From the NCBI GenBank assembly GCA_028818565.1, contig JAPPNV010000307.1, positions 16,374-80,373 on the forward strand: 64,000 bases of DNA, read 5' to 3'. This document shows positions 9,612 to 55,611 of the stretch, in pieces (the stretch's first letter is position 1; each line of letters begins with the position of its first letter). The stretch is from Rhodospirillales bacterium (lineage in GTDB: Bacteria > Pseudomonadota > Alphaproteobacteria > UBA828). Made by a program: the position numbers and the translations under genes. Below the pieces are notes generated by a model. The model ran no database searches, was not told the origin of the DNA, and saw only the letters and a program-made list of their open reading frames with translations.

Positions 9612-9648
9612 CGGCCACCGTGCCCACTGAAGGGCGCAGGAGGGAGAC

Positions 9649-10974: not shown

Positions 10975-10980
10975 GGCAGC

Positions 10981-11449: not shown

Positions 11450-11579
11450 CACGTGGCACGGGCAAGGATAATCCCGCGAATTGCGGGCGGAACATGGCCG
11501 CCATTTCGGGAGAACTTTGCTTGCGCCATATCGTTATCTGACGCGGCAAGGGTGCCGGCTTTTCCGCCGGGAAATCCGC

Positions 11580-12418: not shown

Positions 12419-12621
12419 GGGTGTACACCGGGGTTGATCCCGCCCGCCGACTAGGGGGCGTCAAGCAGCTACCGTAACCGTGCACGTCGTCCCTGTATAT
12501 ACTGCTAAACGAGCGATAAATTTGGCCTTACGGTCCAAGAGACTTGCAGAAATGCAGCTGACCAGTGAGCACCCCTGTTGCGAAAAATTACGCTTCCTTC
12601 GGCCGACCTCTACTTTTCTTC

Positions 12622-13701: not shown

Positions 13702-13712
13702 CTTACACGCTC

Positions 13713-16529: not shown

Positions 16530-16605
16530 AGCGGACGATTCGCCGTTGGCCCGGGCCGGCGCGCGGCGTAAGCATGGGCGACGACTTGGCATGAAGGCAC
16601 CGGTC

Positions 16606-17076: not shown

Positions 17077-17598
17077 TCAGCCGCTGCCGTCGGCGGCGAG
17101 CTTTTCGCGCAGGTAGGGGATCAGGCCACCGGCCTGCAGCATGCCGCGCTCGGCGGTGGAGTAAGGTGCGGTGGGGAGCGCGCCGCCCCGGCTCAGGTTG
17201 CGGACCTCTGCCGCCTCCCAGTCGATCTCGATCTCGTCCCAGCGCGCGACCAGGCCGGTGATGCCGGGGCAGGCGATCTGCGGGAAGCCCTCGGCGATCT
17301 CCTCCCGCCAGTAGCCGGTGGCGAAGGAGTCCGCGATCACCGCGCGGATGCCTAGGCGGCGCAGCCCGATCATCGGCGCGAAGTGGGGATGGCCGTAGCC
17401 GAAATTCTCGGCGCCGACGACCACGTCGCCGGGCTCGACCTTCTCCGCGAAGCCGGGATCGAAGCGGCGCATGGCGTGAGCCGCGAGCGCGTCGGGGTCG
17501 GTGAGGCGGATGTTCTCGACGCCCACGATCTGGTCCACGTCGAAGTCCGCCTCCTCGAAGACGTAGGCGACGCGGCCGCGCAGCGGGGCCAGACTCAC
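17077..17598 (-). CDS. aconitase-family small subunit (LeuD-like, type 2 3-isopropylmalate/homoaconitate dehydratase small subunit)
   Basis: GTG start (residue 69 of the track ORF) gives VSLAPLRGRVAYVFEEADFDVDQIVGVENI.... The GTGA start overlaps the large-subunit stop. Confidence 0.75.
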   Translation of the reverse strand: MSLAPLRGRVAYVFEEADFDVDQIVGVENIRLTDPDALAAHAMRRFDPGFAEKVEPGDVVVGAENFGYGHPHFAPMIGLRRLGIRAVIADSFATGYWREEIAEGFPQIACPGITGLVARWDEIEIDWEAAEVRNLSRGGALPTAPYSTAERGMLQAGGLIPYLREKLAADGSG

Positions 17599-40127: not shown

Positions 40128-40916
40128 TCACGAGCCGAACGCCTCGGTCAGGCGACCGCGCCACCCGTGATTGGTCATGTCCAGCTGGATCGGCGTGACC
40201 GAAATCGCGTTCTCGTGGATCGCATGGAGATCGGTTCCGGGGTGTTTGCCACCGTCCTTGTAGCTGATCTCCACCCAGAAGTAGGGCACGTGGCGCGTGT
40301 CGATGCGCCCGTCGATGGTGAAGGAACCCGGCGGCCGCTGCCCCTGGGCGGTGATGCGGACGCCGCTCACCGATTCCGGCAGCGCATCCGGGAAGTTGAC
40401 GTTGACCAGCGTGCCCGAGGGCCAGTCCGGCAGGCGCATGAGGGTCTCGATCACGTCCGGTGCGAAGGCTTCCGCCGTGGCCCAGAGCGCCTCGCCGCCC
40501 ATGGTGAACACCTGGCTGAGCGCGATCGAGCGGATGCCGAGCAGGGTTCCCTCCATCGCTGCGGCGATGGTGCCGGAATAGGTCATGTCCTCCGCGAGGT
40601 TCGCGCCGCGATTGATGCCGGAGAGGAGGACCGTAGGCGGGCTCTCGGTCATCAGCTCGTGGATCGCCATCAGCGCGCAGTCGGTGGGCGTGCCGTCCAC
40701 CGCGTAGCGCCTCTCGCCCATCTGGCGCAGGCGGATCGGCGTATGCATCGAGATCGAATGGCCGGCACCGCTCCGCTCGTGATCCGGCGCGACGACCCAG
40801 ACGTCGTCTGACAGGCTCCGCGCGATCGCCTCGAGAATCTTCAGCCCCCTGGCGTGGATGCCGTCGTCATTGGTGACCAGGATGCGGTGGTGGGAGAGAT
40901 CGCTCTCCGCTGGCAT
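40128..40916 (-). CDS. surE: 5'/3'-nucleotidase SurE
   Basis: Internal ATG with AAAGGA SD gives MPAESDLSHHRILVTNDDGIHARGL..., the SurE signature. The upstream part of the track ORF is noise. Confidence 0.85.
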   Translation of the reverse strand: MPAESDLSHHRILVTNDDGIHARGLKILEAIARSLSDDVWVVAPDHERSGAGHSISMHTPIRLRQMGERRYAVDGTPTDCALMAIHELMTESPPTVLLSGINRGANLAEDMTYSGTIAAAMEGTLLGIRSIALSQVFTMGGEALWATAEAFAPDVIETLMRLPDWPSGTLVNVNFPDALPESVSGVRITAQGQRPPGSFTIDGRIDTRHVPYFWVEISYKDGGKHPGTDLHAIHENAISVTPIQLDMTNHGWRGRLTEAFGS

Positions 40917-41103: not shown

Positions 41104-41856
41104 GTGGCGAAGCTCTACGTGGACTCGGACAAGTACGGCGATCAGGCCCACTCGCCCACCGTCGAGGCGTTCCATAGCGCGATCAAGGACCTCGTCCGGC
41201 GCCGCCTCGACGAGAGCGGGGTCGACTGGAACAGCTTCGTCTTCGACAAGTCCTACGATCTGATTACCGCGGCCGATTTCGAGGAGATCGAGAGGAAACT
41301 CCTCGACGCCGGGCACCGCTACGACTTCTCGGCCGTGATTTCGGTGAACGAACGGCCCGAGGCCTACAAGCCCGCCGAAGGCATCTTGGGCGACGACCCC
41401 GACTGGACCATGGAGCACCCCGACGCGCCCTCAGGCGACGCAGACGCGGAGGGCCGGGCGCTCTGCGGCGTCGGCGACAACGTGATGCGCGTCTCCGAAA
41501 ACACCGTGGGCACCGCGCACTACGTCCGCTCCAGCAGCCAGGTCATGCGCTACCTCGGCGATGGCGTGCCGCCCGGGACCATCGCCATCATCGACGATTC
41601 CGGCGGGACCCTGACGGCGCCGATCCTGGAGCGGTTCGCCGGAATTATCTGCATGGGCGGCACCGTACGCTCCCATCTCGGCATCCTCTCGCGGGAGTAC
41701 GGCATTCCCTGCTTCATGAACGCCAAGATCACCGGGATCAGGGAAGGCGAGCGGCTGGAGATGGAGACCGCCGCGGCGGCGAAGACGGCGGAGGCCTACC
41801 AGAAGGGCGAGGAAATGACCGCCAACATCTGGAAGCTGGTCCAGGAGGCTCCGTGA
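41104..41856 (+). CDS. protein with a C-terminal PEP-utilising-enzyme mobile (phosphohistidine) domain
   Basis: GTG start with GGGGGAGAG SD. The C-terminal approximately 90 aa, GTIAIIDDSGGTLTAPILERFAGIICMGGTVRSHLGILSREYGIPCFMN, fits the swivelling phosphohistidine domain of PEP synthase/PPDK (GG-T-SH-AI-ARE-GIP). The N-terminal approximately 140 aa is unassigned. Confidence 0.6.
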   Translation: MAKLYVDSDKYGDQAHSPTVEAFHSAIKDLVRRRLDESGVDWNSFVFDKSYDLITAADFEEIERKLLDAGHRYDFSAVISVNERPEAYKPAEGILGDDPDWTMEHPDAPSGDADAEGRALCGVGDNVMRVSENTVGTAHYVRSSSQVMRYLGDGVPPGTIAIIDDSGGTLTAPILERFAGIICMGGTVRSHLGILSREYGIPCFMNAKITGIREGERLEMETAAAAKTAEAYQKGEEMTANIWKLVQEAP

Positions 41857-43409
41857 TGGTCGGCGCGCCGCGACTTTCATACGCCCAGCTGCTGGAGACC
41901 AACAACCTCCTTCAGACCTTCACCGACGAGACCTACTGGCTCTGCGTCACGCGGACGGTGCAGGAGTCGAAGCTCTTTCCTGTGCCGCCCTACATGCTGC
42001 TCTCGTACCTCAACGCCTTCTACCGCTATCCCTCGCTCTTGCGGAAGGTGGAGAGCGTGATGACGGCGGAAGAGATCGGCGACCGCGCCCGCGAGGGGCG
42101 CCCGCCCGGCAAAAGCGCCATGGGCTGGGGGATGCCGGGCTTTTACCTGCTCGGCCGCGAGTGGCTCATCAACATGGGGCTGCTGCGGCCACAGGACGCC
42201 GCCGAAGACGTCGTCTACCTGATGGATTTCTGGAAGCGCCTGCAGCTCTCCTGGCACAGGAACGACGGGCACATCACGAACAAGGAATTCGGCCACCGCT
42301 GCCAGATCCTGCCCGAACGCAGGCTCCAGGTCTTCGAGTCCGACGCCTACGGCTGCGAGACCGGCGATCCGCTGCACAGCGCGGCGACCCAGTTCATGGC
42401 GTCTGCGGCCCAATACGGCTTCCTGGTGAGCTGCGAGAGCCGCATCAGCCTGCTCAACACCGGGCCCTACAAGCTTGCCGACGGCAACGAGATGATCGTC
42501 CGCGAATTCATGGACCTCGGCGAGGGCGACTTCCCCTGGCTCGACGACGTGGCTGCGGACATTCCCTACAACAACCTCACCGTCCCGATGCTGGTGAAGG
42601 ACTGCCACTTCTACCTGGTCGACGACTGGGGCAGCTTCGAATCCGAGCCCGAGTTCCGGGCAGAGAGCATCGTCGGCGTCGGCCTCTACACCTCCGACCC
42701 GCTCACCGAGGGGCACGTTCCGGTGGGGATGGAGAGCCGCGAGGCCCTGACCGAGACCTTCCGCACGCTGGACGGGCTCTTCAAGGAGGCGACGGCGCGG
42801 CTCTGGAAGCGCATCGCCGGCTGGAGCCGCGACCAGATGCTCGATGCCGGCGCGCTCACCTACTTCGGCATCTGCAAGGATCTCGCCCATGTCGCCGGCG
42901 TCTACGCCCACGAGGACTGGATGCTGATCGACGAGCGGGCCGAGCGCTTCCGCCCGCTGCTCAACGACGAGTTCAGCCGCGACTGCCTGGGCGAGCTGGT
43001 GGGGCTGCTGACGCTGCCGAGCCATCGCCTCTCGTCCTACAGCATGATGCAGCACGGCAACGGCCCGACGCGCATGTACACGCCGATCCCCTACGCGATC
43101 CTGGACGGCGAGGGTTACGTGCCCACCTGCGGCCCGGTCTACCCCGGCGCCACCACGCTCCCGGCCAAGGCCGACCGCTACCGCACCAGCCAGGGTGTGC
43201 TGACGCTGGAGGAGTACAACCTACGGGTCCGTGACTTCGCGCCGCAGTCGGATCGGTATCGTTTCCTGGACGAGACCTGGCTCAAGTACAACCACGACAC
43301 GCCGCGTGCCGACAAGATGTACCGGCACGAGCAGGAGCGGGCGCGCAAGATCCAGGATTGCGGCGCATCGCTCGGCGCTGCGGAGCTGGCGGCGCTTCCC
43401 CGCGACTAG
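41856..43409 (+). CDS. hypothetical protein (517 aa), translationally coupled to the upstream phosphohistidine-domain protein
   Basis: ATG at 41856 overlaps the upstream TGA (GTGATGG), with AGGAGG 8 nt upstream. I recognise no family (MVGAPRLSYAQLLETNNLLQTFTDETYWLCVTRTVQESKLFPVPPYMLLSYLNAFYRYPSLL...). Confidence 0.55.
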   Translation: MVGAPRLSYAQLLETNNLLQTFTDETYWLCVTRTVQESKLFPVPPYMLLSYLNAFYRYPSLLRKVESVMTAEEIGDRAREGRPPGKSAMGWGMPGFYLLGREWLINMGLLRPQDAAEDVVYLMDFWKRLQLSWHRNDGHITNKEFGHRCQILPERRLQVFESDAYGCETGDPLHSAATQFMASAAQYGFLVSCESRISLLNTGPYKLADGNEMIVREFMDLGEGDFPWLDDVAADIPYNNLTVPMLVKDCHFYLVDDWGSFESEPEFRAESIVGVGLYTSDPLTEGHVPVGMESREALTETFRTLDGLFKEATARLWKRIAGWSRDQMLDAGALTYFGICKDLAHVAGVYAHEDWMLIDERAERFRPLLNDEFSRDCLGELVGLLTLPSHRLSSYSMMQHGNGPTRMYTPIPYAILDGEGYVPTCGPVYPGATTLPAKADRYRTSQGVLTLEEYNLRVRDFAPQSDRYRFLDETWLKYNHDTPRADKMYRHEQERARKIQDCGASLGAAELAALPRD

Positions 43410-43450: not shown

Positions 43451-44947
43451 ATGCAGATCGGCGAATACATCCGGCGCGCGGGCGCCATGTTCGGCGAGGC
43501 GCCAGCGCTGACCGAGGGCGCGCGCACGCTGAGCTTCCGCGCACTCGACGAAGCGACGGACCGGCTCGGCAACGCGCTGCTGGTGGAAGGCTTCGAGCCG
43601 GGCGATCGCGTCGGCGTGCTGCTGCCCAACGGGATCGACTGCCTGATCGCCTACTACGCGCTTGCCAAGTGCGGCCTCGTGCGGGTCTCGCTCAACGTGC
43701 GCGAGACCGCGGCGGACCATCGCTACAAGTTGGGCGATAGCGGCGCGCGTGGACTCATCCACGACGGCTCTGGCAGTGCCGACGGCATCGATGTGGAACT
43801 CGTCTACGACCTCGACGCTCTGCGCCGGCTCATCGACGACGGCCCGCCCGGCGCCTGCCGCGTGGACCGCGACCTTGAGGCGCCCTTTCGCCTGGGCTTC
43901 ACCGGCGGGACCACCGGCGCGCCCAAGGCGGTCACGCTCACCACGCTGGGCGAGACTGCGGAGCTCTCGGCCTTTCTCATGGACCTGGTGCCGGACCTCG
44001 CGCCGGGCGACCGCTTTCTCCACGCCGCCCCCATCGCACACGCATCGGGCGCCTTCTTCCTGCCCTCGCTGGTGCGGGGCGTGCACCAATGGATCATGCC
44101 GCACTTCGACGCGGCCGGCTTCATCGCCATGGCCGCGCAGGGGCAGGCGACCCATACCTTTCTCGTGCCGACCATGCTGGCCATGATCATGGAGGAGCCC
44201 GCGCTGGAGACGGCGACGCTCCGCTTCAAGCGCATCTGCTACGGCGCTTCGCCCATCGCGCCGAGCCTCTTGGAGCGCGCCATGGACCGCTTCGGGCCGG
44301 TCTTCGCCCAGACCTACGGCCAGGCTGAATCGCCGATGGTTATCACCTGTCTCGGGCCGGAGGATCACGACCGCGTGGGCTCGTGCGGGCGGCCCTATAC
44401 CACCGTGGACGTGGCGATCTTCAACGATGACGACATGCCCGTGCCCACCGGCGAGCGGGGCGAGATCGTCTGCCGCGGCACCCAGCTCATGGCCCGTTAC
44501 TGGAACCGCCCGGAGGAGACGGCCAAGGCCTTCCGCAACGGCTGGCTCCATACCGGCGACATCGGCCGCATGGACGAGGACGGCTTCTTCTACATCCTCG
44601 ACCGAAAGAACGACATGCTCATCAGCGGTGGCTACAACGTCTATCCCCGGGAGATCGAAGACGTGCTGCTTGCGTACGAGGGCGTTGTCGAGGCCGCGGT
44701 CGTGGGCTTGCCCGACGAGAAGTGGGGCGACCGCGTTCATGCGGTGGTCGCCGGGCGGCCCGGCCTGGACCCGGAGGCCGTGCGGCTGTTCTGCCGCGAG
44801 CGGCTAGCGGGCTACAAGTGCCCGAAGAGCGTCGAGATCTGGGACACGCTGCCCAAGAGCGGGGCCGGCAAGCTCCTGCGCCGCGCCGTGCGCGACCGCG
44901 TTATCGCGGCGGCAGCCACCGAGGCGCCCGTGCAGCCGGGCAACTGA
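43451..44947 (+). CDS. AMP-dependent synthetase/ligase (acyl-CoA synthetase family)
   Basis: AMP-binding motifs FTGGTTGAPKAV, YGQAESP, GWLHTGDIG and the lysine-containing C-terminal KSGAGKLLRR are present. Confidence 0.85.
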   Translation: MQIGEYIRRAGAMFGEAPALTEGARTLSFRALDEATDRLGNALLVEGFEPGDRVGVLLPNGIDCLIAYYALAKCGLVRVSLNVRETAADHRYKLGDSGARGLIHDGSGSADGIDVELVYDLDALRRLIDDGPPGACRVDRDLEAPFRLGFTGGTTGAPKAVTLTTLGETAELSAFLMDLVPDLAPGDRFLHAAPIAHASGAFFLPSLVRGVHQWIMPHFDAAGFIAMAAQGQATHTFLVPTMLAMIMEEPALETATLRFKRICYGASPIAPSLLERAMDRFGPVFAQTYGQAESPMVITCLGPEDHDRVGSCGRPYTTVDVAIFNDDDMPVPTGERGEIVCRGTQLMARYWNRPEETAKAFRNGWLHTGDIGRMDEDGFFYILDRKNDMLISGGYNVYPREIEDVLLAYEGVVEAAVVGLPDEKWGDRVHAVVAGRPGLDPEAVRLFCRERLAGYKCPKSVEIWDTLPKSGAGKLLRRAVRDRVIAAAATEAPVQPGN

Positions 44948-44950
44948 GCC

Positions 44951-45553
44951 ATGAGCGACACCTACCTCGTCCTCCACGGGCTTGCGATCAAGAAGCACGC
45001 GGACGCTGGCGCGGTTGCCGCTGCGCTCGGACTCGCCGAGGACGAGGTGCGCGCCGTGCTGGACGATGCGGTGGCGAAAGGCCGCGCAGCGCGCGCAGGC
45101 GAGGCATATTCGCTGACTCCCGTCGCCCGTGTGGCGCTCGACGGCGCCTATTCCCGGCTCTTCGCCGCGCAACGGGCCGATGAGGCCTTCGCCGCCGCCC
45201 ACGAGCGCTTCGAGGCGATCAACATAGAGCTAAAGCAGCTGATGACCGCGTGGCAGACCATCGAGATCGATGGCGAGAACGTGCTGAACGACCACACCAA
45301 CAAGGACTACGACGACAGGCTGATCGACCGCCTCGGCGCCCTGCACGAGCGGGCGGAGACGACCCTCCAGCAACTGAGCGCCGGGCTGCCACGCCTCGCA
45401 ATTTATTCGGAAAAGCTCGAAGCGGCGCTGGAGAAGGCCGAGGACGGCGCCATCGAGTGGGTCAGCGGCGCGCGGATCGAGTCCTACCACACGGTCTGGT
45501 TCGAGCTTCACGAGGACCTGCTGCGGATCCTCGGCCGCACGCGGCAGGAATAG
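44951..45553 (+). CDS. hypothetical protein (200 aa; possible winged-helix-like N-terminal region)
   Basis: It starts 4 nt after the ligase stop. Its stop TAG overlaps the next start region (TAGGCATG). No confident family assignment. Confidence 0.5.
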   Translation: MSDTYLVLHGLAIKKHADAGAVAAALGLAEDEVRAVLDDAVAKGRAARAGEAYSLTPVARVALDGAYSRLFAAQRADEAFAAAHERFEAINIELKQLMTAWQTIEIDGENVLNDHTNKDYDDRLIDRLGALHERAETTLQQLSAGLPRLAIYSEKLEAALEKAEDGAIEWVSGARIESYHTVWFELHEDLLRILGRTRQE

Positions 45554-45555: not shown

Positions 45556-47316
45556 ATGGGTGCCGTCGGCCGCTGGGTCCTTTCCCTTGACGGCGCTGCG
45601 TTGCCCGACGGTGCGCTTGTCGGGGGCAAGGCGTGGGGCATCGCCTTCATGCGCCACGCGGGCCTCCCGGTGCCGCCCGCCTTCGTGGTGACGACAGAGG
45701 CCTGCCGCGCCTACCTCGCCGAGGGCCAGTTGCCGGATGGCCTCACCGACGAGCTTCACGCCGGCATCGCCATGCTGGAGGCGGAGACCGGGCGCCGCTT
45801 CGGCGTGCCCGAGCGCCCGTTGCTGCTGGCGGTCCGCTCCGGCGCCGCCATCAGCATGCCGGGCATGCTGGATACGGTGCTCAATCTCGGGATCGACGAA
45901 GAGATTGAGGCGGCTCTGGCGCGAGAAAGCGGCGACGTGGCCTTCGCCCGCGACACCCACCGGCGCTTCCACGAGATGTACGCGCGCATCGTGCTCAAGG
46001 CGGGGATCGACGGGCTTCCGCCCGAGGGATCCGTCGAGGAATGGCGGGCGGCCGTGGCGGAGGCGGGGGCCGCAGCCAGGGTGCCGGAGGCGCCGGTCGA
46101 TCAGCTTCTCGGCGCGGTTCGTGCCGTCTTCGACTCATGGAACGGGCGGCGCGCGAAGCGTTATCGCCGGCATCACGGGCTCGCGGATGACGCGGGCACC
46201 GCCGTCACGGTGCAGGCCATGGTGTTTGGCAACCTCGGCGCGAACAGCGGGACGGGCGTGCTTTTCAGCCGCAATCCGCTCACCGGTGCGCCTGTGCCTT
46301 ACGGCGAGTATCTTGCCTGCGCCCAGGGGGAGGACGTGGTCTCCGGCCAGCGGACGCCGCAGGGACTCGATGCGCTGTCGTCGTCCCTGCCGGAGGCGCA
46401 CGCCGCCCTGATCGACGCCGCGGGCCGGCTGGAGGCGCTGAACCGGGATGTGCAGGACATCGAGTTCTCGGTACAAAATGGCGCGCTCTACCTGTTGCAG
46501 ACCCGCACCGCCGCCCGGGCTCCCGCAGCGGCCATGCGCATCGCCGTCGATCTGGTGAACGAGGGAACCATCTCCTCCGACGAAGCGCTCGCCCGCGTCA
46601 GCGCGGCCCAGGTCCGGACGCTGCTCATGCCCCGCCTCGATGAGGGCGCCGGAGAGGACGCCGCCCTGCTCGCGGAAGGCGAGGGCGCGAGTCCTGGTGT
46701 CGGCATCGGCAAAGTCGTGCTGGATGCCGACGCGGCCGAGGCGAGCGGCGCGGCCGGCGAGGACGTGGTGCTGGTGCGCCCGACCACCAGCCCGGAGGAC
46801 GTGCACGGCATGGTCGCCGCCCGCGCGGTCGTGACGGCGACCGGGGGTGCGACCTCGCACGCCGCCGTGGTAAGCCGCTCCCTCGGCGTTCCCTGCGTCG
46901 TCGGCTGCGGCGAAGGCGTGGGCGCGGCGCTTGCGGGCAGGGAGGTGACGGTGGATGGCAAGGCCGGGCAGGTGTTCGATGGTGTCCTGCCGGTGAGCAT
47001 TCCCGCGGAGACGGACGATCCGTACCTGCGCCGGATTGCGGCATGGGCCCGCGCGGCCGCGCCCATCGCGGTCTATCGCGCCGAAGATTCGGCGCCCAAC
47101 GGCGCGGTCGATCTCGACCGCTTGCCCGGCGGTGAGGAACCGGAGCGAATGCCCGCGCTGCTCGCGGGGGCTCCCGGCGCAAAGGGCGGCGCGCTCGCCA
47201 GCGATGCGGGTGTCGCGGCCGCCGTTGCCGCCGGCCTCGACTTCATCGTTGTTCGCCACGCTCTGCCGGCCCTGCTCGCGGCCTGTGCCGCCGCGCGCGC
47301 CGAGGCTGCCACATGA
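45556..47316 (+). CDS. pyruvate-phosphate-dikinase-like protein: PPDK_N nucleotide-binding domain plus central phosphohistidine domain, lacking the C-terminal PEP/pyruvate TIM barrel
   Basis: MGAVGRWVLSLDGAALPDGALVGGKAWGIAFMRHAGLPVPPAFVVTTEACRAYLAEG...LLLAVRSGAAISMPGMLDTVLNLG...RRFHEMYARIV...VFDSWNGRRAKRYRRHHGLADDAGTAVTVQAMVFGNLGANSGTGVLFSRNPLTG...YGEYLACAQGEDVVSGQRTP is collinear with the PPDK N-terminal domain. ATGGATSHAAVVSRSLGVPCVVGC is the catalytic His swivel domain. The protein ends about 80 aa later, so there is no room for the roughly 300-aa PEP-utilizers C domain. Confidence 0.8.
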   Translation: MGAVGRWVLSLDGAALPDGALVGGKAWGIAFMRHAGLPVPPAFVVTTEACRAYLAEGQLPDGLTDELHAGIAMLEAETGRRFGVPERPLLLAVRSGAAISMPGMLDTVLNLGIDEEIEAALARESGDVAFARDTHRRFHEMYARIVLKAGIDGLPPEGSVEEWRAAVAEAGAAARVPEAPVDQLLGAVRAVFDSWNGRRAKRYRRHHGLADDAGTAVTVQAMVFGNLGANSGTGVLFSRNPLTGAPVPYGEYLACAQGEDVVSGQRTPQGLDALSSSLPEAHAALIDAAGRLEALNRDVQDIEFSVQNGALYLLQTRTAARAPAAAMRIAVDLVNEGTISSDEALARVSAAQVRTLLMPRLDEGAGEDAALLAEGEGASPGVGIGKVVLDADAAEASGAAGEDVVLVRPTTSPEDVHGMVAARAVVTATGGATSHAAVVSRSLGVPCVVGCGEGVGAALAGREVTVDGKAGQVFDGVLPVSIPAETDDPYLRRIAAWARAAAPIAVYRAEDSAPNGAVDLDRLPGGEEPERMPALLAGAPGAKGGALASDAGVAAAVAAGLDFIVVRHALPALLAACAAARAEAAT

Positions 47317-47792
47317 CCATCGACCGCAAGGAGGTCGAGGCGCTGATCCGCCTCTTCGAGCGGTCGGACTGGCACGAGCTCCGGCTCGAGACCGACGGGC
47401 TGAAGCTGGTGCTCTCGAAGGACGCGGATGCGGCAGCGCTCGGGTCGGAAGCCGAGGCTGCCGCAGCCTCGGCAGAGAAGGCTCCCCTGGAAACCACACG
47501 CGCCCAGGACGACGTGGCGCCGGTGGACGGGCTGGTCCCGATCACGGCGCCCAACCTCGGCACCTTCTATCGCGCGCCGAAGCCGGGGGTCGCGCCCTAC
47601 GTGGAGGTCGGCCAGCAGGTCGGCGAGGCAACCGAGGTATGCCTGATCGAGGTCATGAAGCTGTTCACGCCGGTTCGGGCCGGGATCAACGGCCGGATCG
47701 CCAAGGCCTGCGTCGAGGACGGCGAGATGGTGGAGTTCGGCGCGCCGCTCTTTCTGGTCGAGCCGGAGGCCGAAGCGGCCGAGAAGGCGTGA
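47313..47792 (+). CDS. biotin carboxyl carrier protein (biotinyl/lipoyl domain protein)
   Basis: ATGA overlap with the upstream stop. The C-terminal biotinyl domain carries the CLIEVMKLFTPV lysine motif (AMKM-type) within a GxxVxxGxxL hammerhead context. Confidence 0.8.
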   Translation: MTIDRKEVEALIRLFERSDWHELRLETDGLKLVLSKDADAAALGSEAEAAAASAEKAPLETTRAQDDVAPVDGLVPITAPNLGTFYRAPKPGVAPYVEVGQQVGEATEVCLIEVMKLFTPVRAGINGRIAKACVEDGEMVEFGAPLFLVEPEAEAAEKA

Positions 47793-49150
47793 TGGCCCTC
47801 TCGCGCGTCTTCGTCGCCAACCGGGGGGAGATCGCCGTGCGCATCGTCCGCGCCTGCCGCTCCCTCGGGCTCGAGAGCGTCGTCGGGGTCTCCGACGCCG
47901 ACCGCGAGGGCCTGGCGGCGGAGCTTGCGGACCGCGCCGTGGTGCTGGGGCCGGCGCCGGCGCGCGAGAGCTACCTCAACGCCAATCTCGTGGTTCATGC
48001 GGCGAAGGCGACCGCATGCGACGCGCTGCATCCGGGCTACGGCTTCCTCTCCGAATCTTCGGCCCTCGCCGGGCTGTGCGAGCGGGAGGAGATCGTGTTC
48101 GTGGGGCCGCGGGCCGAGACCATCGAGCGGCTCGGCGACAAGCTCACCGCCCGCGCCATCGCAGCCGAGGCGGACGTGCCCATTGTCCCTGGTTCCGGCG
48201 AGATCCGCGCGGCAGCGGAGGCACGCACGTTTGCCGCGCGGGTCGGCTATCCGGTGCTGATGAAGGCCAGCGCCGGCGGCGGCGGGCGCGGCATGTTCGT
48301 TGCGCGAACGGACGCGGACATCGACGACGGTTTCGAGCGCGCATCGGCGGAAGCCGAAGCCGCCTTCGGCGACGGGGCGCTCTTCGTCGAGCGCTTCGTC
48401 GAGGACGCGCGTCACGTCGAGGTCCAGATCATGGGGGACGGTGCAGGCGCGGTCGTCCACTTCGGCGAGCGGGATTGCTCGGTGCAGCGGCGCTTCCAGA
48501 AGGTGGTGGAGGAAGCGCCGGCGGCGGCGCTGTCGGCCGAGGCGCGCGCGCAGATCCACGACGCCGCCTGCCGTCTCGCCCGGCACCTCGACTATCAGAG
48601 CGCCGGCACGGTCGAGTTCCTCTACGACGTGGCACGCGGCGAGGCCTATTTCATCGAGGCCAACGTGCGTATTCAGGTTGAGCATCCGGTGACGGAGGAA
48701 GTCACCGGCATCGACCTGATCGAGGAGCAGTTGCGCATCGCTGGAGGTGGCGGGCTCAGCGTCGCGCAGGGGGACATCGCCCTTGCCGGCCACGCCATCG
48801 AATGCCGGATCAACGCCGAGGCGCCGGAGCGGGACTTCGCGCCGTCGCCCGGTTTGATCGACGCCTGGCGCGCACCGGAGGGCCAGGGCATCCGCATCGA
48901 CAGCCACTGCCGCGCGGGCGCCTTCGTGTCTCCCTTCTACGACAGCATGATCGCCAAGCTGATCGTGCGCGCCGGCGACCGCACGCAAGCGGTGGAGCGC
49001 ATGAGCGGCGCGCTGGACGCGTTTCGGATCGGTGGCATCGACACCAACCTCGCGTTCCAGGCGCGCCTCGTGCGGCACCCTGACTTCGCAGCCAACAGTC
49101 TCAACACGCGCTGGCTGGAGGATGTCTTCATGCCCTCGCTCATGCACTAG
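47792..49150 (+). CDS. biotin carboxylase (ATP-grasp; AccC-like subunit)
   Basis: TGATG overlap with the BCCP stop. MALSRVFVANRGEIAVRIVRACRSLG..., YPVLMKASAGGGGRGM and EANVRIQVEHPVTE are present. It runs the full length of AccC (452 aa). Confidence 0.85.
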   Translation: MALSRVFVANRGEIAVRIVRACRSLGLESVVGVSDADREGLAAELADRAVVLGPAPARESYLNANLVVHAAKATACDALHPGYGFLSESSALAGLCEREEIVFVGPRAETIERLGDKLTARAIAAEADVPIVPGSGEIRAAAEARTFAARVGYPVLMKASAGGGGRGMFVARTDADIDDGFERASAEAEAAFGDGALFVERFVEDARHVEVQIMGDGAGAVVHFGERDCSVQRRFQKVVEEAPAAALSAEARAQIHDAACRLARHLDYQSAGTVEFLYDVARGEAYFIEANVRIQVEHPVTEEVTGIDLIEEQLRIAGGGGLSVAQGDIALAGHAIECRINAEAPERDFAPSPGLIDAWRAPEGQGIRIDSHCRAGAFVSPFYDSMIAKLIVRAGDRTQAVERMSGALDAFRIGGIDTNLAFQARLVRHPDFAANSLNTRWLEDVFMPSLMH

Positions 49151-49166: not shown

Positions 49167-50627
49167 ATGGCGCATATCGAATTCCTCGACGAGACCATGC
49201 GGGACGGGCAGCAGAGCCTTTGGGGCATGCGCATGCAGGCCGGCATGGCGCTCCCCATTGCGCCGGTCATCGATCGGGTGGGCTACCGCGTGGTGGACCT
49301 CACGGGCTCCAGCCTCTTCGAGGTGCTGATCCGCCACTGCCGCGAGAACCCGTGGGAAGGGCTCGACCTCCTGGTCGACGCCATGCCGAACAGCACGATC
49401 CGCGGCGGCATGCGCAGCAACGCGAGCGTTACCTTCGGCGTCACACCCGATGCGCTGATGGACGTCTGGATGCGGCAGCTTTGCGTCCACGGCTGCCGCA
49501 GCTTCTGGATCTACGACGTTCTCTTCAATATCGACAAGACGCACCGCCTCGCCAAGGTGGCCAAGGAGTTCGGCGCGGAGGTGGCGGGCGCCATCATGTT
49601 CACGCTGAGCCCGGTTCACACCGACGACTATTACGCCGACAAGGCGGACAGGCTCTCCGCCTCGCCGGATATCGACACGCTCCTGCTTTACGACACGGGC
49701 GGCGTGCTGGAGCCCGACCGCATGCGCACGCTGGTTCCGGCGATCATGGCGAAGGCGCGCGGCAAGCCCATCGAGTTCCACTCGAATAACCTCCTCGGCG
49801 CCTCCGGTCGCGCCTACGTCGAGGCGATCAAGCTCGGCATCCGCATCCTGCACACCGCCTGCGGACCCATGGCGAACGGCCCCTCGGTGCCCTCGGTCGA
49901 GGTGATGACGCGGAACGTCGAGCACCTGGGCCATACCCACAACATCGACCGCTCGCTGTTGCCGCAGATCGCGGAGCACTTCGAGAGCGTGGCCGCGGCG
50001 GCCGGGTTCCCCATCGGCGTGCCGCAGGAATACGACCTCTTCTCCGTGCGGCATCAGGTGCCGGGCGGGATGATGGGCACGCTCAAGGCGCAGCTCGTCC
50101 AGCACGAGATGGCGGACCGGCTCGACGACGTGCTGGAGGAAACCGGCCACGTGCGCCGCGAGCTCGGCTACCCCGGCATGGCGACACCGTTCTCCCAACT
50201 GGTCGGCACGCTGGCTGTGCTCAACATCGTCACCGGCGAGCGCTATTCCGTTATCCCGGACGAGGTGATCCAATACGCCGGTGGGCACTACGGCGAGCCG
50301 GTCGCGCCCATCGATGAGGACGTGCTGGACCGGATTATGGCCGCACCTCGCGCCAGGGAGGTGCTGGCCGAGCCGCCGGAGCAGCCTGCGCTGGCCGAGC
50401 TGCGCAAGCGCCACGGCACCGATGACGACGACGAGCTGATCCTGCGTGCCCTGGTCCCGGCGGCGGACCTCGACAGGATGCGCGCCGCGGGCCCGGTGAA
50501 GCGGGACTTCCCGATTCTCTCCACGCCGGAGCTCGAGCACGTGCGCAAGCTGATGGCGCTCTCCACCTCGAAGTACGTCGAGGTGGAGACCGCGAACCTC
50601 TCGGTCTCGTTGCGCCGCGCCGGCTAG
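49167..50627 (+). CDS. carboxyltransferase subunit of a biotin-dependent oxo-acid carboxylase (HMGL-like TIM barrel plus PYC/OadA-type domain; no biotinyl domain)
   Basis: AGGAGAGCGACG SD. FLDETMRDGQQSLWGMRM...IDRVGYRVVDLTGSS...LIRHCRENPWEGL...FWIYDVLFNIDK...MFTLSPVHTDDYY...LLLYDTGGVL...IEFHSNNLLGASGRAYVEAIKLG is collinear with the pyruvate carboxylase B-subunit / oxaloacetate decarboxylase alpha carboxyltransferase domain. Confidence 0.8.
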   Translation: MAHIEFLDETMRDGQQSLWGMRMQAGMALPIAPVIDRVGYRVVDLTGSSLFEVLIRHCRENPWEGLDLLVDAMPNSTIRGGMRSNASVTFGVTPDALMDVWMRQLCVHGCRSFWIYDVLFNIDKTHRLAKVAKEFGAEVAGAIMFTLSPVHTDDYYADKADRLSASPDIDTLLLYDTGGVLEPDRMRTLVPAIMAKARGKPIEFHSNNLLGASGRAYVEAIKLGIRILHTACGPMANGPSVPSVEVMTRNVEHLGHTHNIDRSLLPQIAEHFESVAAAAGFPIGVPQEYDLFSVRHQVPGGMMGTLKAQLVQHEMADRLDDVLEETGHVRRELGYPGMATPFSQLVGTLAVLNIVTGERYSVIPDEVIQYAGGHYGEPVAPIDEDVLDRIMAAPRAREVLAEPPEQPALAELRKRHGTDDDDELILRALVPAADLDRMRAAGPVKRDFPILSTPELEHVRKLMALSTSKYVEVETANLSVSLRRAG

Positions 50628-50634: not shown

Positions 50635-51804
50635 ATGCGCCGCGCCTGCATCGTCGATGTCGTCCGCACGCCCTTCGCCAGGGGGCGGGAGGGCGGTGCG
50701 CTGAGCGCGGTTCACCCGGTCGACCTGCTCGCGAAGACGCTCGAGGGCCTGGTCGCGCGCACCGGCATCGACCCCGGCGCGGTCGACGACGTGATCGCGG
50801 GCTGCGTCATCCAGGTGGGCGAGCAGGCCGCCAACATCGGCCGCCAAGCCTGGCTCGCGGCGGGCTTTCCCGAGACCGTCCCCGCCGTCACCATCGATCG
50901 CAAGTGCGGCTCGGCGCAGCAGGCGATGGACTTCGCGGCCCAGGGCGTGATGGCGGGGGCCTACGACCTCGCCATCGCCTGCGGGGTCGAGATGATGAGC
51001 CGCGTGCCCATGGGCAGCAACCGGCGCGGTAAGGACCATCTGGGTCCGATGTTGCGCCGGCGCTATGCGGAAGGCCTGGTGCACCAGGGCATCTCCGCCG
51101 AGCTGATCGCCGCACGCTGGGGCCTCTCGCGCGAAGCACTCGACGCCTATGCGCTGCGCTCGCACCGGCGCGCCGCGGCTGCCGAGGACAAGGGCCTCTT
51201 TGCGCGCGATATCGTACCCATCGACAGCGCTGCCAGGGACGAAGGCATCCGCCGCAACACGAGCGCCGAGAGGCTGGCCGCGCTGGAGCCGGCGTTCGTG
51301 GACGCCGGTACGGCCGAGCGCTTTCCCGAGATCGGCTGGGTGGTGACGGCGGGGAATTCAAGCCAGGTTTCCGATGGCGCATCGGCGCTGCTGATCGCTT
51401 CGGAAGAGGCGGCGCGGCGGTTGAAACTCGCCCCGCGCGCCGCCATCACCCACTTTGCGGTCTGCGGCGACGACCCCGTGCTCATGCTGACCGGAATCAT
51501 CCCGGCGACACGGAAACTGCTGGCGCGGAGCGGCCGGACCTTCGACGACATCGACTGCTTTGAGGTCAACGAAGCCTTCGCGTCCGTGGTGCTGGCGTGG
51601 GCGGAGACGCTGGGTGCGGACCTCGACCGGGTCAACGTCAACGGCGGCGCCATCGCCTTCGGCCACCCCGTCGGCGCGTCGGGCGGACGGCTCACGGCCA
51701 ACCTGATCGGCAGCCTGGAGGAGAACGGCGGGCGCCTCGGCCTTCAGACCATGTGCGAGAGCGGCGGCATGGCCAACGCAACGCTGATCGAGCGGCTGGG
51801 TTGA
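50635..51804 (+). CDS. thiolase (acetyl-CoA C-acyltransferase family)
   Basis: RKCGSAQQA holds the active-site Cys. NVNGGAIAFGHPVGASG and the CESGGMANA C-terminal motifs are present. Confidence 0.85.
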   Translation: MRRACIVDVVRTPFARGREGGALSAVHPVDLLAKTLEGLVARTGIDPGAVDDVIAGCVIQVGEQAANIGRQAWLAAGFPETVPAVTIDRKCGSAQQAMDFAAQGVMAGAYDLAIACGVEMMSRVPMGSNRRGKDHLGPMLRRRYAEGLVHQGISAELIAARWGLSREALDAYALRSHRRAAAAEDKGLFARDIVPIDSAARDEGIRRNTSAERLAALEPAFVDAGTAERFPEIGWVVTAGNSSQVSDGASALLIASEEAARRLKLAPRAAITHFAVCGDDPVLMLTGIIPATRKLLARSGRTFDDIDCFEVNEAFASVVLAWAETLGADLDRVNVNGGAIAFGHPVGASGGRLTANLIGSLEENGGRLGLQTMCESGGMANATLIERLG

Positions 51805-51813: not shown

Positions 51814-52554
51814 CTACGCCGCCAGGTAGTGGCCGCCGTTGACGAAGATGGTCTGCCCCTGGACGAACTCGGCTTCGGGGCTCGCGAGGAAACGGATCAC
51901 GCTGGTGTAGTCCTCGTCCCGCACGCCGCGCCCGCTCGGGTTGGTCTCGGCGGCGTGCTTCACGATCTCGCTTGCCTGGTCGCCGAACAGCGCCCGCACG
52001 GCATCCGTGTCCACCACGCCGGGGGCGACGCTGTTGATCCGCACGCCACGCGGCGCGAGCTCGCTCGCGAGATAGCGCACCAGAGATTCCGCCAGCGCCT
52101 TGGCGACGCCGATGGCGGCGTAGTTGGGGACCACGGTGCGCCCGCCCCGGCTGGTGAGGAAGAACACCGTGCTGCCGCGCCGGAGCAGCGGATCGGCCGC
52201 CTGCACGAGGTAGAGCAGCGCCGTGCCGTTGAGATTGACCGCGGCGGCGAAGTCGTCCGCATCGCAGTCCAGCGCGGGCCTCGGAATGGCGCGGACGGCG
52301 CAGTGCACGAGCTGGTCGAGCCTGTCGACTCGCTCCGCCACCTCGGCGAGCACAGCGCGCGCGCCTTCCGGCGTGCCGACATCCTGCTTGATCACGTGGC
52401 AGCGTGCGCCCCTGGCCTCGACCAAGGAATTTGCCTCGCGCGCGGCCGCGTCGTCGCCCGCATAATTGAGAAACACGTCGACGCCGGATTCGGCAAAGGC
52501 AAGCGCGATGGCGCGTCCGATGCCCTTGGTGCCGCCCGTTATCAAGATCGACAT
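51814..52554 (-). CDS. SDR-family oxidoreductase
   Basis: MSILITGGTKGIGRAIA holds the TGxxxGxG motif. The YAAIGVAKAL catalytic Y-x3-K and the PGVVDTD motif are present. Confidence 0.8.
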   Translation of the reverse strand: MSILITGGTKGIGRAIALAFAESGVDVFLNYAGDDAAAREANSLVEARGARCHVIKQDVGTPEGARAVLAEVAERVDRLDQLVHCAVRAIPRPALDCDADDFAAAVNLNGTALLYLVQAADPLLRRGSTVFFLTSRGGRTVVPNYAAIGVAKALAESLVRYLASELAPRGVRINSVAPGVVDTDAVRALFGDQASEIVKHAAETNPSGRGVRDEDYTSVIRFLASPEAEFVQGQTIFVNGGHYLAA

Positions 52555-52875: not shown

Positions 52876-53736
52876 ATGACCGTGAACACCATCGGCGTGG
52901 TGGGCGCCGGCATGATGGGCTCGGAAATCGCGCTGGTGATGGCGCTCGCCGGCAAGGCGGTGCTGCTGAGCGACCGCGATCAGGCGCTGCTCGACAAGGC
53001 CGTGGCCAAGCTCGACGGCGTGCTCGAGAAGGGCATCGCCCGCGACTTCTACAGCGACGACGACAAGGACAGGGTGCAGGACAACCTGCGCACGACCCTC
53101 GACCTCGGCGACTTCGCACCTTGCGACATGGTGATCGAGGCCGTGTTCGAGGACGAGGAGGTAAAGGCCGGCGTCTATCGGGCGCTCGGCGAGGTTCTGG
53201 CCCCGGCGTGCCTGATCGCGAGCAACACGTCGAGCATCTCGATCAGCGTGCTCGCCTCCTACCTGGAGGAGGCCCGCCGGCCCTTCTTCCTCGGCACCCA
53301 TTTCTTCTCGCCGGTCTCGCGCATGAAGCTGGTCGAGGTGATCCCGGGGCTGGAGACCGCGGAAGAGACCGTCGCCTCCGTGACCGCGGTCTGCGAGGAG
53401 GCGGGCAAGACGCCGGTGCCGATCAAGGATGTCGTCGGCTTCGCGGTCAACCGCCTGATCCACATCTTCTGGATCGAGGCGATCCGCCTGGTGGAAGAAG
53501 GGGTGGCTACGCCCGAGGATATCGACACCGCCTGCAAGCTCGGCATGGGGCTCCCGGTCGGGCCGTTCCGCCTGATGGACGCGGTGACCAACAACCTCAG
53601 CCTTGACGTGCAGGAGATCCTGCACGAGGCCTACGGGCCCCGGTTCATGCCGCGCCCCCTGCTGAAGCAGATGGTGAAGGCGGGCTACAATGGGCGGAGC
53701 GCCGGCAAGGGCTGGTATCGCTACGACGAAGGCTGA
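52876..53736 (+). CDS. 3-hydroxyacyl-CoA (3-hydroxybutyryl-CoA) dehydrogenase
   Basis: GGGAGG SD. IGVVGAGMMGSEIA is the NAD-binding motif. The NTSSISI and HFFSPVSRMKLVEV motifs are present. Confidence 0.85.
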   Translation: MTVNTIGVVGAGMMGSEIALVMALAGKAVLLSDRDQALLDKAVAKLDGVLEKGIARDFYSDDDKDRVQDNLRTTLDLGDFAPCDMVIEAVFEDEEVKAGVYRALGEVLAPACLIASNTSSISISVLASYLEEARRPFFLGTHFFSPVSRMKLVEVIPGLETAEETVASVTAVCEEAGKTPVPIKDVVGFAVNRLIHIFWIEAIRLVEEGVATPEDIDTACKLGMGLPVGPFRLMDAVTNNLSLDVQEILHEAYGPRFMPRPLLKQMVKAGYNGRSAGKGWYRYDEG

Positions 53737-53780
53737 GCCGGGGCAGCGTTCGCGCTCGACCGGATCGAGGAGGGAGAGAG

Positions 53781-54812
53781 ATGGAAGCAGCAGTGTTCAG
53801 GGGTGTCGGCAATCCCTTGTCGGTCGAGCAGGTAGACGAGCCGTCAGTGCGGCCGGGCGATCTCCTGATCAAGGTCGAGTATTGCGGAATCTGCGGCTCG
53901 GATCTGCACGCGACCGAGGCTGGCGCGCTGGTGGTGCCGGACGGCCAGATCCTGGGCCACGAGTTCACCGGGACCGTCGTGGAGATGGGCACGGAAGTAG
54001 GCGGGGACTGGAACGTAGGCGATCATGTGACCGCCGTGCCGGTCAACGCCTGTGCGGAGTGTGGACGCCAGTGCAAGCTCGGCATGGGCATCCACTGCCC
54101 CAACAACATCATCACTGGCTTCGGCGCGCCGGGGGCATACGCCGAGTACATTCGCGTCGATGCGGGCAACGCGCTGCGCCTGCCGAAGGGCTTGAGTTTC
54201 CGCGAGGGCGCGACGGCAGAGCCGCTCTCCGTCGGCCATCACGTGATCGACAAGGCGGGCATGCGGCCGGGTACCAACGTGCTGGTGATCGGCGCCGGCC
54301 CCATCGGCCTCTCGTGCACGACCTTCGCCCGCTTCTCCGGCGCCCGCCACGTCGTGGTGAGCGAGTTTGCCGAGAACCGCCGCGAGCGCGCTCTGGCAAT
54401 GGGGGCCACCGCAGTCATCGACCCCAACGCCGGCGATGTGGCCGAGCAGTACGCGGCGATCGCCGGCGGCCCGCCCGATCTCGTGATCGAGTGCGTGGGC
54501 GTCCCCGGAATGCTCGGGCTCTGCATCGACCTGGTGAAGCACCAGGGCAAGGTCATGGTCTGCGGCGTCTGCACCAACGAGGAGAGCTTCATCCCGCTCG
54601 CCGCGCTGGCGAAGGAGGTCTGCCTGCAGTGGGCGCTCGGTTACAAGCCGAGAGACTTCGAGGTGGTGCTCGATCTGCTTGCGAGCGGGCGGATCGACCC
54701 GGCGCCGCTCATCACCCACGTGATCGGCTTCGACGATCTCGCCGCGCGCTTCGAGAAGCTCAGAACGCCGACCGACGAGTGCAAGGTGCTGTTGCGCCCC
54801 CAGCGGGACTGA
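53781..54812 (+). CDS. zinc-dependent MDR alcohol dehydrogenase (threonine/sorbitol-dehydrogenase-like; candidate secondary-alcohol dehydrogenase)
   Basis: GAGGGAGAGAG SD. CGICGSDLH is the catalytic Zn site. CAECGRQCKLGMGIHC is the structural Zn site. VIGAGPIGL binds NAD. Confidence 0.85.
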   Translation: MEAAVFRGVGNPLSVEQVDEPSVRPGDLLIKVEYCGICGSDLHATEAGALVVPDGQILGHEFTGTVVEMGTEVGGDWNVGDHVTAVPVNACAECGRQCKLGMGIHCPNNIITGFGAPGAYAEYIRVDAGNALRLPKGLSFREGATAEPLSVGHHVIDKAGMRPGTNVLVIGAGPIGLSCTTFARFSGARHVVVSEFAENRRERALAMGATAVIDPNAGDVAEQYAAIAGGPPDLVIECVGVPGMLGLCIDLVKHQGKVMVCGVCTNEESFIPLAALAKEVCLQWALGYKPRDFEVVLDLLASGRIDPAPLITHVIGFDDLAARFEKLRTPTDECKVLLRPQRD

Positions 54813-54825
54813 CGGGAGGGATTCG

Positions 54826-55611
54826 ATGACCGGACGGGTCGACGGCAAGATCGCGCTCATCTCGGGCGCCGGCACGGGCGTCGGGCGCGCCTGCATGGTT
54901 CTGTTCGGACGGGAGGGCGCCAAGGTGGTCGGCTGCTCGCGTACCCAGGCGAACCTTGACGAGACGCTGCGGCTGACGAAGAAGGCGGGCGGCGACGGTG
55001 TCGTGGTCGCGCACGACCTTGCGCGGCCCGAAGGGGCGGAGGCGTTGATCCAGGCCGCCATGGATGTTTACGGGCGCATCGACATCCTCGTGAACTGCGC
55101 GAGCGTCGGCTACAGCTGGCTGGAGAAAAGCCCCGATTCCATGGGCGACGTGGTCAACACCACGCCCGAGAAGTGGCAGGAGGTGATGGGGATCAACCTC
55201 GATTCCTATTTCTATCTCTGCCGCGGCGTCGTTCCCATCATGCAGAAGCAGGGCGGCGGCGCGATCGTCAACGTGGCCAGCATCTCGGGCTTCCAGGGCC
55301 TTCCCGTCGCGCACACCTACACGGCGGCGAAAGGCGCTGCGATCAACCTGACGCGCTCGCTCTGCGTGACCTATGCCAAGGACAATATTCGGGCCAATTG
55401 CGTCGCACCGGGCTTCATCGACACGCCGATGGTGGCGCCCGTCCTCAATCTCTTCGACGATCCGGACATGGCGGACCGCCTCACGCCGATGCTGCGCCCC
55501 GGCACGCCTGAGGAGATGGCCTACGGCTGCCTCTATCTCGGCTCCGACGAGGCGACCTACTGTAACGGCACCGTGCTGACCATCGACGGCGGGACCACGG
55601 CTCGGCAGTAG
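54826..55611 (+). CDS. SDR-family oxidoreductase
   Basis: GGGAGGG SD. ISGAGTGVGRA, NCASVG and YTAAKGA (Y-x3-K) are present. Confidence 0.85.
   Translation: MTGRVDGKIALISGAGTGVGRACMVLFGREGAKVVGCSRTQANLDETLRLTKKAGGDGVVVAHDLARPEGAEALIQAAMDVYGRIDILVNCASVGYSWLEKSPDSMGDVVNTTPEKWQEVMGINLDSYFYLCRGVVPIMQKQGGGAIVNVASISGFQGLPVAHTYTAAKGAAINLTRSLCVTYAKDNIRANCVAPGFIDTPMVAPVLNLFDDPDMADRLTPMLRPGTPEEMAYGCLYLGSDEATYCNGTVLTIDGGTTARQ

Follow-up and report, generated by a model that had tools for sequence, protein, structure and literature searches.

A 64,000-nucleotide stretch of DNA from a Rhodospirillales bacterium (contig JAPPNV010000307.1 of assembly GCA_028818565.1; hereafter the window) carries the gene of a short pyruvate, phosphate dikinase, here named sPPDK, which is collinear with canonical pyruvate, phosphate dikinase (PPDK) through the nucleotide-binding and phosphohistidine domains and has no domain for phosphoenolpyruvate (PEP) and pyruvate. 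Its gene belongs to an operon of closely packed genes, all in one direction, in which it is preceded by a small protein with a second phosphohistidine-type swivel domain (HisS), two proteins of no known family (U518 and U200) and an acyl-coenzyme A (CoA) ligase, and in which a biotin carboxyl carrier protein (BCCP), a biotin carboxylase (BC) and a carboxyltransferase (CT) of the PYC_OADA type lie directly downstream of the dikinase genes, followed by a thiolase. Comparison of these proteins with their relatives makes it reasonably probable that sPPDK, U200, HisS and U518 together form an ATP-dependent dikinase that primes a ketone for biotin-dependent carboxylation and subsequent breakdown. 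The observations on which we build this argument are the domain content of the proteins, the conservation of their catalytic residues, the synteny of their genes and the fusions among them.

A short PPDK relative without the PEP/pyruvate domain

The sPPDK gene starts with an ATG that is preceded by AGGA and lies 2 nt 3' of the stop codon of the upstream gene, and its own TGA (47314-47316) overlaps the BCCP start codon at 47313 in an ATGA overlap. A first-pass annotation of the window, made from the sequence alone, had described this open reading frame (ORF) as intact, cleanly terminated and overlapped at ATGA by the gene that follows, and its 586-aa product as collinear with PPDK through both the nucleotide-binding and the His domain; both statements agree with what we found. 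Pfam recognised PPDK_N (2.3e-42) and the PEP-utilizers mobile domain (2.3e-23) and no other domain, phmmer aligned residues 6-504 with the PPDKs of C. symbiosum and plants in the PDB, and Foldseek matched the protein to solved PPDKs at 38-40% identity (E 1e-48). The AlphaFold2 model has a mean predicted local distance difference test (pLDDT) score of 90.6. Among database proteins, one from a Rhodospirillales MAG is 100% identical to sPPDK.

The residues expected of a phosphotransfer enzyme are all present. The motif TGGATSHAAVVSRSLGVPCVVG was found in sPPDK, and His435, the predicted phospho-carrier, falls on the TSH motif of the C. symbiosum enzyme, whose histidine is the catalytic His455. 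In an alignment of 18 diverse homologues, H435 is invariant, as are K25, R94, D301, E303, Q315 and R317, the counterparts of the nucleotide-site residues of C. symbiosum PPDK. Conservation of the catalytic histidine and of the ATP-grasp residues, which the annotation had proposed to verify, is thus borne out, and by analogy with VadK, a short PPDK of M. tuberculosis, we infer that sPPDK autophosphorylates on His435.

What canonical PPDK has and sPPDK lacks is the PEP/pyruvate TIM barrel of about 340 aa. TIGR01828, the model of full-length PPDK, aligned with sPPDK to residue 512 only and reached 496 bits against a cutoff of 843; as the profile similarity to PPDK ends there, sPPDK alone cannot form PEP. 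Three tests of the tail were negative. Pfam, read at E-values of up to 10, found no PEP-utilizers_C in the last 108 residues; a single-sequence phmmer search of the PDB found no PEP/pyruvate domain for the tail; and neither did a profile of 29 sPPDK tails searched against the PDB, the sole matches of which were non-significant beta-alpha units of HisA (E about 0.2). PEP-utilizers_C was likewise found in none of the Pfam-scanned ORFs across the 64-kb window. Furthermore, a length of 570-620 aa and the same kind of end are shared by upwards of 100 homologues. Because the homologues share length and end, and because the three tail tests were negative, the absence of the barrel is real and not the product of a frameshift; a frameshift or sequencing error was also ruled out by the next gene, which encodes a normal BCCP. 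The central claim of the first-pass annotation, a PEP/pyruvate domain that is absent rather than frameshifted, therefore stands.

Its description of the C-terminus had to be revised. Instead of stopping about 80 residues later in an Ala-rich tail, the protein continues for 151 residues beyond its catalytic His, about 100 of which follow the end of the His domain, and its tail is not of low complexity. The tail forms an alpha/beta subdomain of about 85 aa that is conserved in 29 non-redundant tails and modelled by AlphaFold2 at a pLDDT of about 90 or more, the last few residues excepted. The short PPDKs of M. branderi and Diaphorobacter are 64-80 residues shorter, and their tblastn matches end near residue 480-491. 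A supposed likeness of the tail to the last beta-alpha unit of the barrel, which would have made it the result of an internal deletion, was backed by no result, and we dropped the idea.

The truncated architecture is already known: sPPDK scores 704 bits against NCBIfam NF004531 (PRK05878; cutoff 456), covering profile positions 8-532 of 534. The name 'pyruvate, phosphate dikinase', which the family carries in the source names of homologues, on the plasmids that we examined and in the NCBIfam model itself, is functionally wrong, the protein being unable to make PEP.

Partner proteins and gene fusions

HisS is predicted to carry its phosphate on His191 (codon 41674-41676). The surrounding motif, GGT(V/I)RSHLGILSREYGIPC, is essentially invariant in 78 homologues, with the catalytic His kept in 78/78, and in an alignment with PEP synthase 8A8E it coincides with the TSH motif around the catalytic His. 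The first-pass annotation had named the 517-aa protein and the small His-domain protein together with the range 41104-43409; this range holds two genes, that of HisS (41104-41856) and that of U518 (41856-43409). The annotation had also passed over U200, the biotin-carboxylase half of the operon and the named short-PPDK family PRK05878/VadK.

U518 matched no Pfam and no NCBIfam family, and structure comparison found for it neither a solved relative nor a match to the rifampin-binding domain. It is modelled as an alpha+beta protein, not as a (beta-alpha)8 barrel, and is 63-97% identical across classes. Residues 31-43 and 138-149 form invariant loops where the model is least confident, as might be expected of a lid or of a surface for docking. 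U200 had no Pfam match.

That these proteins work together is suggested by the way in which their genes are joined. U518 and U200 are fused in some genomes into a protein of about 720 aa, with U200 at the C-terminus of U518 in the proteins P0172 and P0230. Distant U518-like domains turned up when a profile was searched against 1.8 billion representatives, several with an N-terminal PEP-utilizers His domain, and in P0492 and a 793-aa protein of R. opacus B4, one chain unites the His domain with a U518-like domain and an end that resembles U200; a short PPDK adjoins this three-part fusion in both places.

Beyond the operon, genes that adjoin short PPDKs in Mycobacterium and Diaphorobacter (L096 8584-9186; L097 6339-6959) encode products of 200 aa, named 'MarR family' or hypothetical, with which U200 shares 39-42% identity in its C-terminal half, and plasmids of Rhodococcus and Streptomyces gave similar matches. 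The third partner in M. branderi and Diaphorobacter is not U518; it is a PEP-utilizing enzyme resembling RPH and HpeH, with a substrate domain and a C-terminal swivel His. The pair of short PPDK and adaptor thus occurs with at least two kinds of acceptor, each of which, judging from its sequence, carries a histidine of its own. Such pairing with different acceptors fits sPPDK as a general donor module.

In two unrelated hosts, a paralogous second module was observed beside the main operon (L084 8428-12939; L087, the Rhodococcus plasmid pRB98, 5902-10272). Its products are a small protein with a His domain (about 126 aa), one that resembles U518 (about 399 aa), a fusion of His and U518-like domains (about 545-575 aa) and a further uncharacterised protein (about 382 aa). 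As the module has no ATP-grasp gene of its own, several acceptor modules may share one short PPDK. On a plasmid of Methylibium petroleiphilum PM1 (L095), positions 8890-11779 encode relatives of U518 and U200 (the latter named 'MarR') and a small His protein of the PEP-utilizing kind, next to what appear to be 2-hydroxyisobutyryl-CoA mutase genes (a B12-binding domain protein, MeaB and the methylmalonyl-CoA mutase family); at another place, this plasmid also carries a short PPDK.

Conservation and distribution of the operon

One genome per species was scanned, which gave U518 relatives in 315 stretches, one per species, and the proteins of the window were compared by tblastn with 82 loci, 51 of which were long enough to judge gene content. 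All seven core genes (HisS, U518, U200, sPPDK, BCCP, BC and CT) are present in 49/51 of these long loci. The thiolase is found in 47 of the 51, an acyl-CoA ligase of more than 50% identity in 43 and the convergent short-chain dehydrogenase (SDR) in 29. Standalone proteins of PPDK_N plus His domain with comparable partners, for which the first-pass annotation had suggested a search, hence occur in many genomes. It had also looked to the 517-aa protein and the His-domain protein for an acceptor supplied in trans, a suggestion to which the co-occurrence in 49/51 long loci and the fusions lend strong comparative support.

Carriers of the operon are Alpha-, Beta- and Gammaproteobacteria, including Rhodospirillales, Rhodobacterales, Roseiarcus, Sphingomonadales, Halieaceae, Salinisphaeraceae, Steroidobacteraceae and Hydrogenophaga, as well as catabolic plasmids of Rhodococcus. 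On N. resinovorum pSA1, the gene order is scrambled and every part of the operon is still there. A SurE-family phosphatase accompanies the operon in the window and in many Alphaproteobacteria; the Rhodococcus operon and some Proteobacteria have Y_phosphatase3 instead. Further recurring neighbours are a GntR regulator, a protein of the acetoacetate-decarboxylase (ADC) family, a second thiolase and a second CoA ligase, which point to no particular compound. An attempt to read the substrate from the neighbourhood was dropped, as transporters, regulators and dehydrogenases vary by lineage. In the literature that we searched on dikinase, biotin carboxylase, thiolase, ketone and PEP-utilizing enzymes, the operon is not described.

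The carboxyltransferase

CT scored below the cutoff of every named NCBIfam family. It is about 30% identical to oxaloacetate decarboxylases and 38% identical to the CT of a MarK-type acetovanillone cluster on plasmid pBAR1 of S. bisphenolicum, whose biotin carboxylase is 50% identical to that of the window. A two-subunit pyruvate carboxylase was ruled out, the CT lying below all curated cutoffs and the operon including a CoA ligase and a thiolase. By NCBIfam, this CoA ligase is of the medium/long-chain type and not an acetoacetyl-CoA synthetase.

CT was compared with V. cholerae OadA (2NX9), the zinc ligands of which are D17, K178 (a carbamylated Lys that pyruvate carboxylase has too), H207 and H209. 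CT keeps D17 (as D13) and H207 (as H205) and replaces K178 with Tyr175 and H209 with Asn207. This D-Y-H-N pattern (D13, Y175, H205, N207) occurs in 56/59 proteobacterial orthologues. The Rhodococcus orthologue has Glu and His-x-His, and the acetovanillone-type CT has Lys and His-x-His, that is, Lys and His where the CT of the window has Tyr and Asn. The substitutions point to altered handling of metal or substrate.

A proposed route

Since it lacks a PEP/pyruvate domain, we propose for sPPDK the part of a donor module that uses ATP within a small-molecule dikinase of several subunits. It would bind ATP in its ATP-grasp domain and autophosphorylate on His435, while U200 would serve as an adaptor, HisS as a second swivel phosphohistidine carrier through His191, and U518 as the substrate-binding subunit, such that phosphate would travel from the histidine of sPPDK to that of HisS and on to the substrate. 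The phosphorylated product, most likely one that bears a methyl ketone, would be carboxylated by BCCP, BC and CT to a beta-keto acid, from which SurE or Y_phosphatase3 would then remove the phosphate, before ligation to CoA and cleavage by the thiolase. In this scheme we infer the order of phosphotransfer, the class of substrate and the position of the phosphate (on a hydroxyl or on an enol oxygen).

The best reading of the operon is that it works on the same principle as the Hpe/Acv acetovanillone pathway but employs another kinase. In the Hpe/Acv pathway for acetovanillone and 4-hydroxyacetophenone, a dikinase acts before a biotin carboxylase that accepts the phosphorylated ketone only, and the route is completed by a phosphatase, by a CoA ligase and by an enzyme that cleaves the C-C bond (PMC9618137; PMC12167813); in other bacteria, MarK, an unrelated second kinase, serves the same type of carboxylase (PMC12624787). 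The Hpe/Acv/Xcc gene sets and the operon of the window share much of this content, namely an ATP-dependent kinase (the proposed dikinase in the window), a three-subunit biotin carboxylase with a CT of the pyruvate carboxylase/OadA type, a CoA ligase and an enzyme for C-C cleavage; for the phosphatase, SurE next to the operon is the candidate in the window. The differences lie in the individual enzymes. The proposed kinase of the window is neither HpeHI/AcvAB, which is RPH-like and has two components, nor MarK (UPF0261), and the operon in the window encodes no UPF0261 protein and no RPH-like subunit; as sPPDK itself matches PPDK and NF004531, the alternative raised in the first-pass annotation, an enzyme of the rifampicin-phosphotransferase type, does not apply. 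The candidate phosphatase is SurE or Y_phosphatase3 here, the phosphatase a HAD enzyme there (the pBAR1 cluster also carries a HAD hydrolase), and a thiolase stands where those pathways have a hydrolase or VceAB.

A further architectural parallel is that of the split dikinases (HpeHI, CreHI and phenylphosphate synthase PpsAB), in which the ATP-grasp module and the module of substrate domain plus swivel His are separate, cooperating proteins (PMC12167813), and with which we grouped the single-chain rifampin phosphotransferase for comparison. Unlike in these, the ATP-grasp protein of the window has a His domain of its own, which gives the system two swivel histidines; U518 has no structural match to the rifampin-binding domain; and a third protein, U200, would be needed. 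In addition, the ATP-grasp domain of sPPDK is PPDK-like, whereas HpeI and its relatives are nearer to PEP synthase (PMC12167813). A four-protein dikinase with U518, two swivel histidines and a coupled biotin carboxylase appears to be a new context for the short PPDK.

Among short PPDKs, one has been studied by experiment, Rv1127c of M. tuberculosis. Its gene lies near the prp genes and next to Rv1126c, which resembles the U200-like genes in its position. Rv1127c was renamed VadK in work of 2025-26 that found ATP- and Mg-dependent autophosphorylation on the swivel His422 and stressed the missing pyruvate/PEP domain (PMC13400623). For VadK, interactions with methylcitrate-cycle enzymes and a tuning of their flux were reported, and it was read as a regulator; Rv1126c co-purifies with it and required a 2 M NaCl wash to be removed (PMC13400623). 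VadK/PRK05878 and sPPDK share the PPDK ATP-grasp and phospho-His domains and the loss of the PEP/pyruvate domain, and mycobacterial plasmid relatives that adjoin a U200-like gene of 200 aa are 50-53% identical to sPPDK. On the other hand, sPPDK has the additional conserved C-terminal alpha/beta subdomain and lies in an operon of biotin carboxylase, CoA ligase and thiolase with HisS and U518, and homologues of prpC or prpD were found neither in the operon nor among the Pfam-scanned ORFs of the window.

The operon offers the short-PPDK family a concrete and testable role, the supply of phosphate to conserved proteins that apparently prime a substrate for biotin-dependent carboxylation. If this holds true, the recently discovered phosphorylate-then-carboxylate degradation of ketones would have a third type of kinase, the conserved 517-aa family, without Pfam model or structural relative, would gain a function, and a catabolic pathway would be added to many marine, freshwater and soil Proteobacteria and to the catabolic plasmids of Rhodococcus. 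It would also offer a new hypothesis for the virulence-associated pair VadK/Rv1126c of M. tuberculosis.

Several points weigh against this proposal. CT is without two of the metal ligands of OadA, and its chemistry may differ from that of pyruvate carboxylase. U518 is assigned as the acceptor site from gene context and fusions, as it has no recognisable fold relative. We know of no precedent for two swivel His domains in one system among characterised small-molecule dikinases, and since HpeI has no His domain, the order of the relay is a guess. Of the full-length loci, only 17/33 have SurE or Y_phosphatase3 at a distance of up to 10 kb, and the neighbouring transporters and regulators vary between lineages. 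Finally, the sole short PPDK with experimental data, VadK, was taken for a kinase with a regulatory and not a metabolic task (PMC13400623).

Alternative readings

This last point leads to the explanation that sPPDK is a histidine kinase in the style of VadK, which would autophosphorylate and bind or phosphorylate the carboxylase or the CoA ligase to tune flux, with no metabolite involved. Although sPPDK passes the PRK05878 short-PPDK model and the sole member with experimental data is reported to tune methylcitrate-cycle enzymes (PMC13400623), we regard this as unlikely, for strict co-inheritance and fusions tie sPPDK to a second His carrier and to U518, in the manner of HpeHI and other split dikinases for small molecules (PMC12167813). 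The cluster repeatedly includes a phosphatase, from either of two unrelated families, and elsewhere the partner of the short PPDK is a substrate-binding subunit of the RPH/HpeH type, both of which argue against a purely regulatory role. Even less can be said for a decayed or split canonical PPDK, be it a pseudogene remnant or an enzyme whose barrel is encoded elsewhere and reassembles with it. The database label 'pyruvate, phosphate dikinase' would suit such an origin, but hundreds of sequences, 58-89% identical, keep the length, the tail and all catalytic residues, no PEP-utilizers_C was found in the ORFs of the 64-kb window that were scanned with Pfam, the modelled fold of U518 is alpha+beta and not a (beta-alpha)8 barrel, and the operon partners (CoA ligase and thiolase) are catabolic; we hold this origin to be highly improbable.

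Within the proposed dikinase route itself, a sub-case deserves attention in which the substrate is a ketone without activation (acetone, for instance, or an aliphatic methyl ketone) that is converted to its enol phosphate and then carboxylated. Its appeal lies in the ancestry of sPPDK, the natural reaction of PPDK being that of a ketone to an enol phosphate, in the secondary-alcohol-type dehydrogenases (SDR and zinc-dependent alcohol dehydrogenase) that flank the operon in the window and in Kineobactrum, and in the remodelled metal site of CT (Lys to Tyr, His to Asn). Phosphoenol-ketone intermediates are, moreover, accepted for the acetone and acetophenone carboxylases. However, U518 is not homologous to the pyruvate barrel of PPDK, so homology gives no ground for carrying over the chemistry of PPDK. 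The CoA ligase belongs to the medium/long-chain type and not to the acetoacetyl-CoA synthetases, and the proven relatives Hpe, Acv and MarK phosphorylate a hydroxyl group and need a phosphatase, a gene for which also lies beside the operon in the window. We consider the enol-phosphate variant rather improbable; if it held, ketone carboxylases would be of three types, this one and those that act on acetone and on acetophenone.

Taken further, the dikinase route could be one case of a wider principle, possible though on balance doubtful, in which short PPDKs are the common ATP-driven donor, an analogue of 'Enzyme I', of a widespread and undescribed group of modular dikinases. Docking would be through an adaptor of the U200/Rv1126c type, and His-to-His transfer would reach interchangeable subunits of the U518 or the RPH/HpeH type. 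The enol or hydroxyl phosphate would be formed on a ketone that a remodelled CT carboxylates, a new type of ketone carboxylase, and VadK would have, or once have had, a small-molecule substrate instead of a purely regulatory role.

Gene layout and further features of the window

The operon and its flanking genes are listed in Table 1.

Table 1. Features of the sPPDK operon and its flanks, in positions of the window.
Feature	Position	Strand	Remarks
SurE-family phosphatase	40128..40916	-	divergent; Pfam SurE 2.5e-58
HisS, 250 aa, C-terminal swivel domain of the PEP-utilizers type	41104..41856	+	Pfam PEP-utilizers 4.2e-07
U518, 517 aa, no known family, candidate acceptor-substrate subunit	41856..43409	+	
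AMP-forming acyl-CoA ligase (ACS)	43451..44947	+	Pfam AMP-binding, AMP-binding_C
U200, 200 aa, no known family, likely sPPDK adaptor/partner	44951..45553	+	
sPPDK, 586 aa	45556..47316	+	ATP-grasp domain, phospho-His swivel domain and C-terminal alpha/beta subdomain
His435 codon, predicted phospho-carrier His (TSHAA motif)	46858..46860	+	invariant in homologue alignment
sPPDK C-terminal subdomain, residues about 489-586	47020..47313	+	linker helix, then strand/helix units
BCCP, biotin carboxyl carrier protein	47313..47792	+	Pfam Biotin_lipoyl; TIGR00531 108 bits
Biotin carboxylase (BC)	47792..49150	+	NCBIfam NF006367 608 bits, above cutoff
Carboxyltransferase (CT), pyruvate-carboxylase/oxaloacetate-decarboxylase (5S) type	49167..50627	+	Pfam PYC_OADA
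Thiolase (Thl)	50635..51804	+	TIGR01930 436 bits, above cutoff
Short-chain dehydrogenase (SDR)	51814..52554	-	convergent with the operon; Pfam adh_short_C2

Past the operon, at 52876-55611, the window encodes a 3-hydroxyacyl-CoA dehydrogenase, a zinc-dependent alcohol dehydrogenase and a second SDR, and alcohol dehydrogenase and SDR genes like these also flank the operon in Kineobactrum. About 6 kb upstream of the operon lie two genes of the acetoacetate-decarboxylase family (PF06314; 33459-34247 and 34272-35045, both on the minus strand), which adjoin a branched-chain-type ABC transporter; ADC-family genes stand beside the operon in 11 other loci, including L025 (3437-4408).

A scan of the whole window gave no match to any Rfam family. 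Two further minus-strand genes are unlinked to the finding, one with a CT_C_D domain (like PxpB or the allophanate hydrolase subunit; 15654-16607) and one of the aconitase family (17595-18878). The window is rich in G+C, with a fraction of about 0.67-0.72 that falls to 0.53 at 12001-14000.

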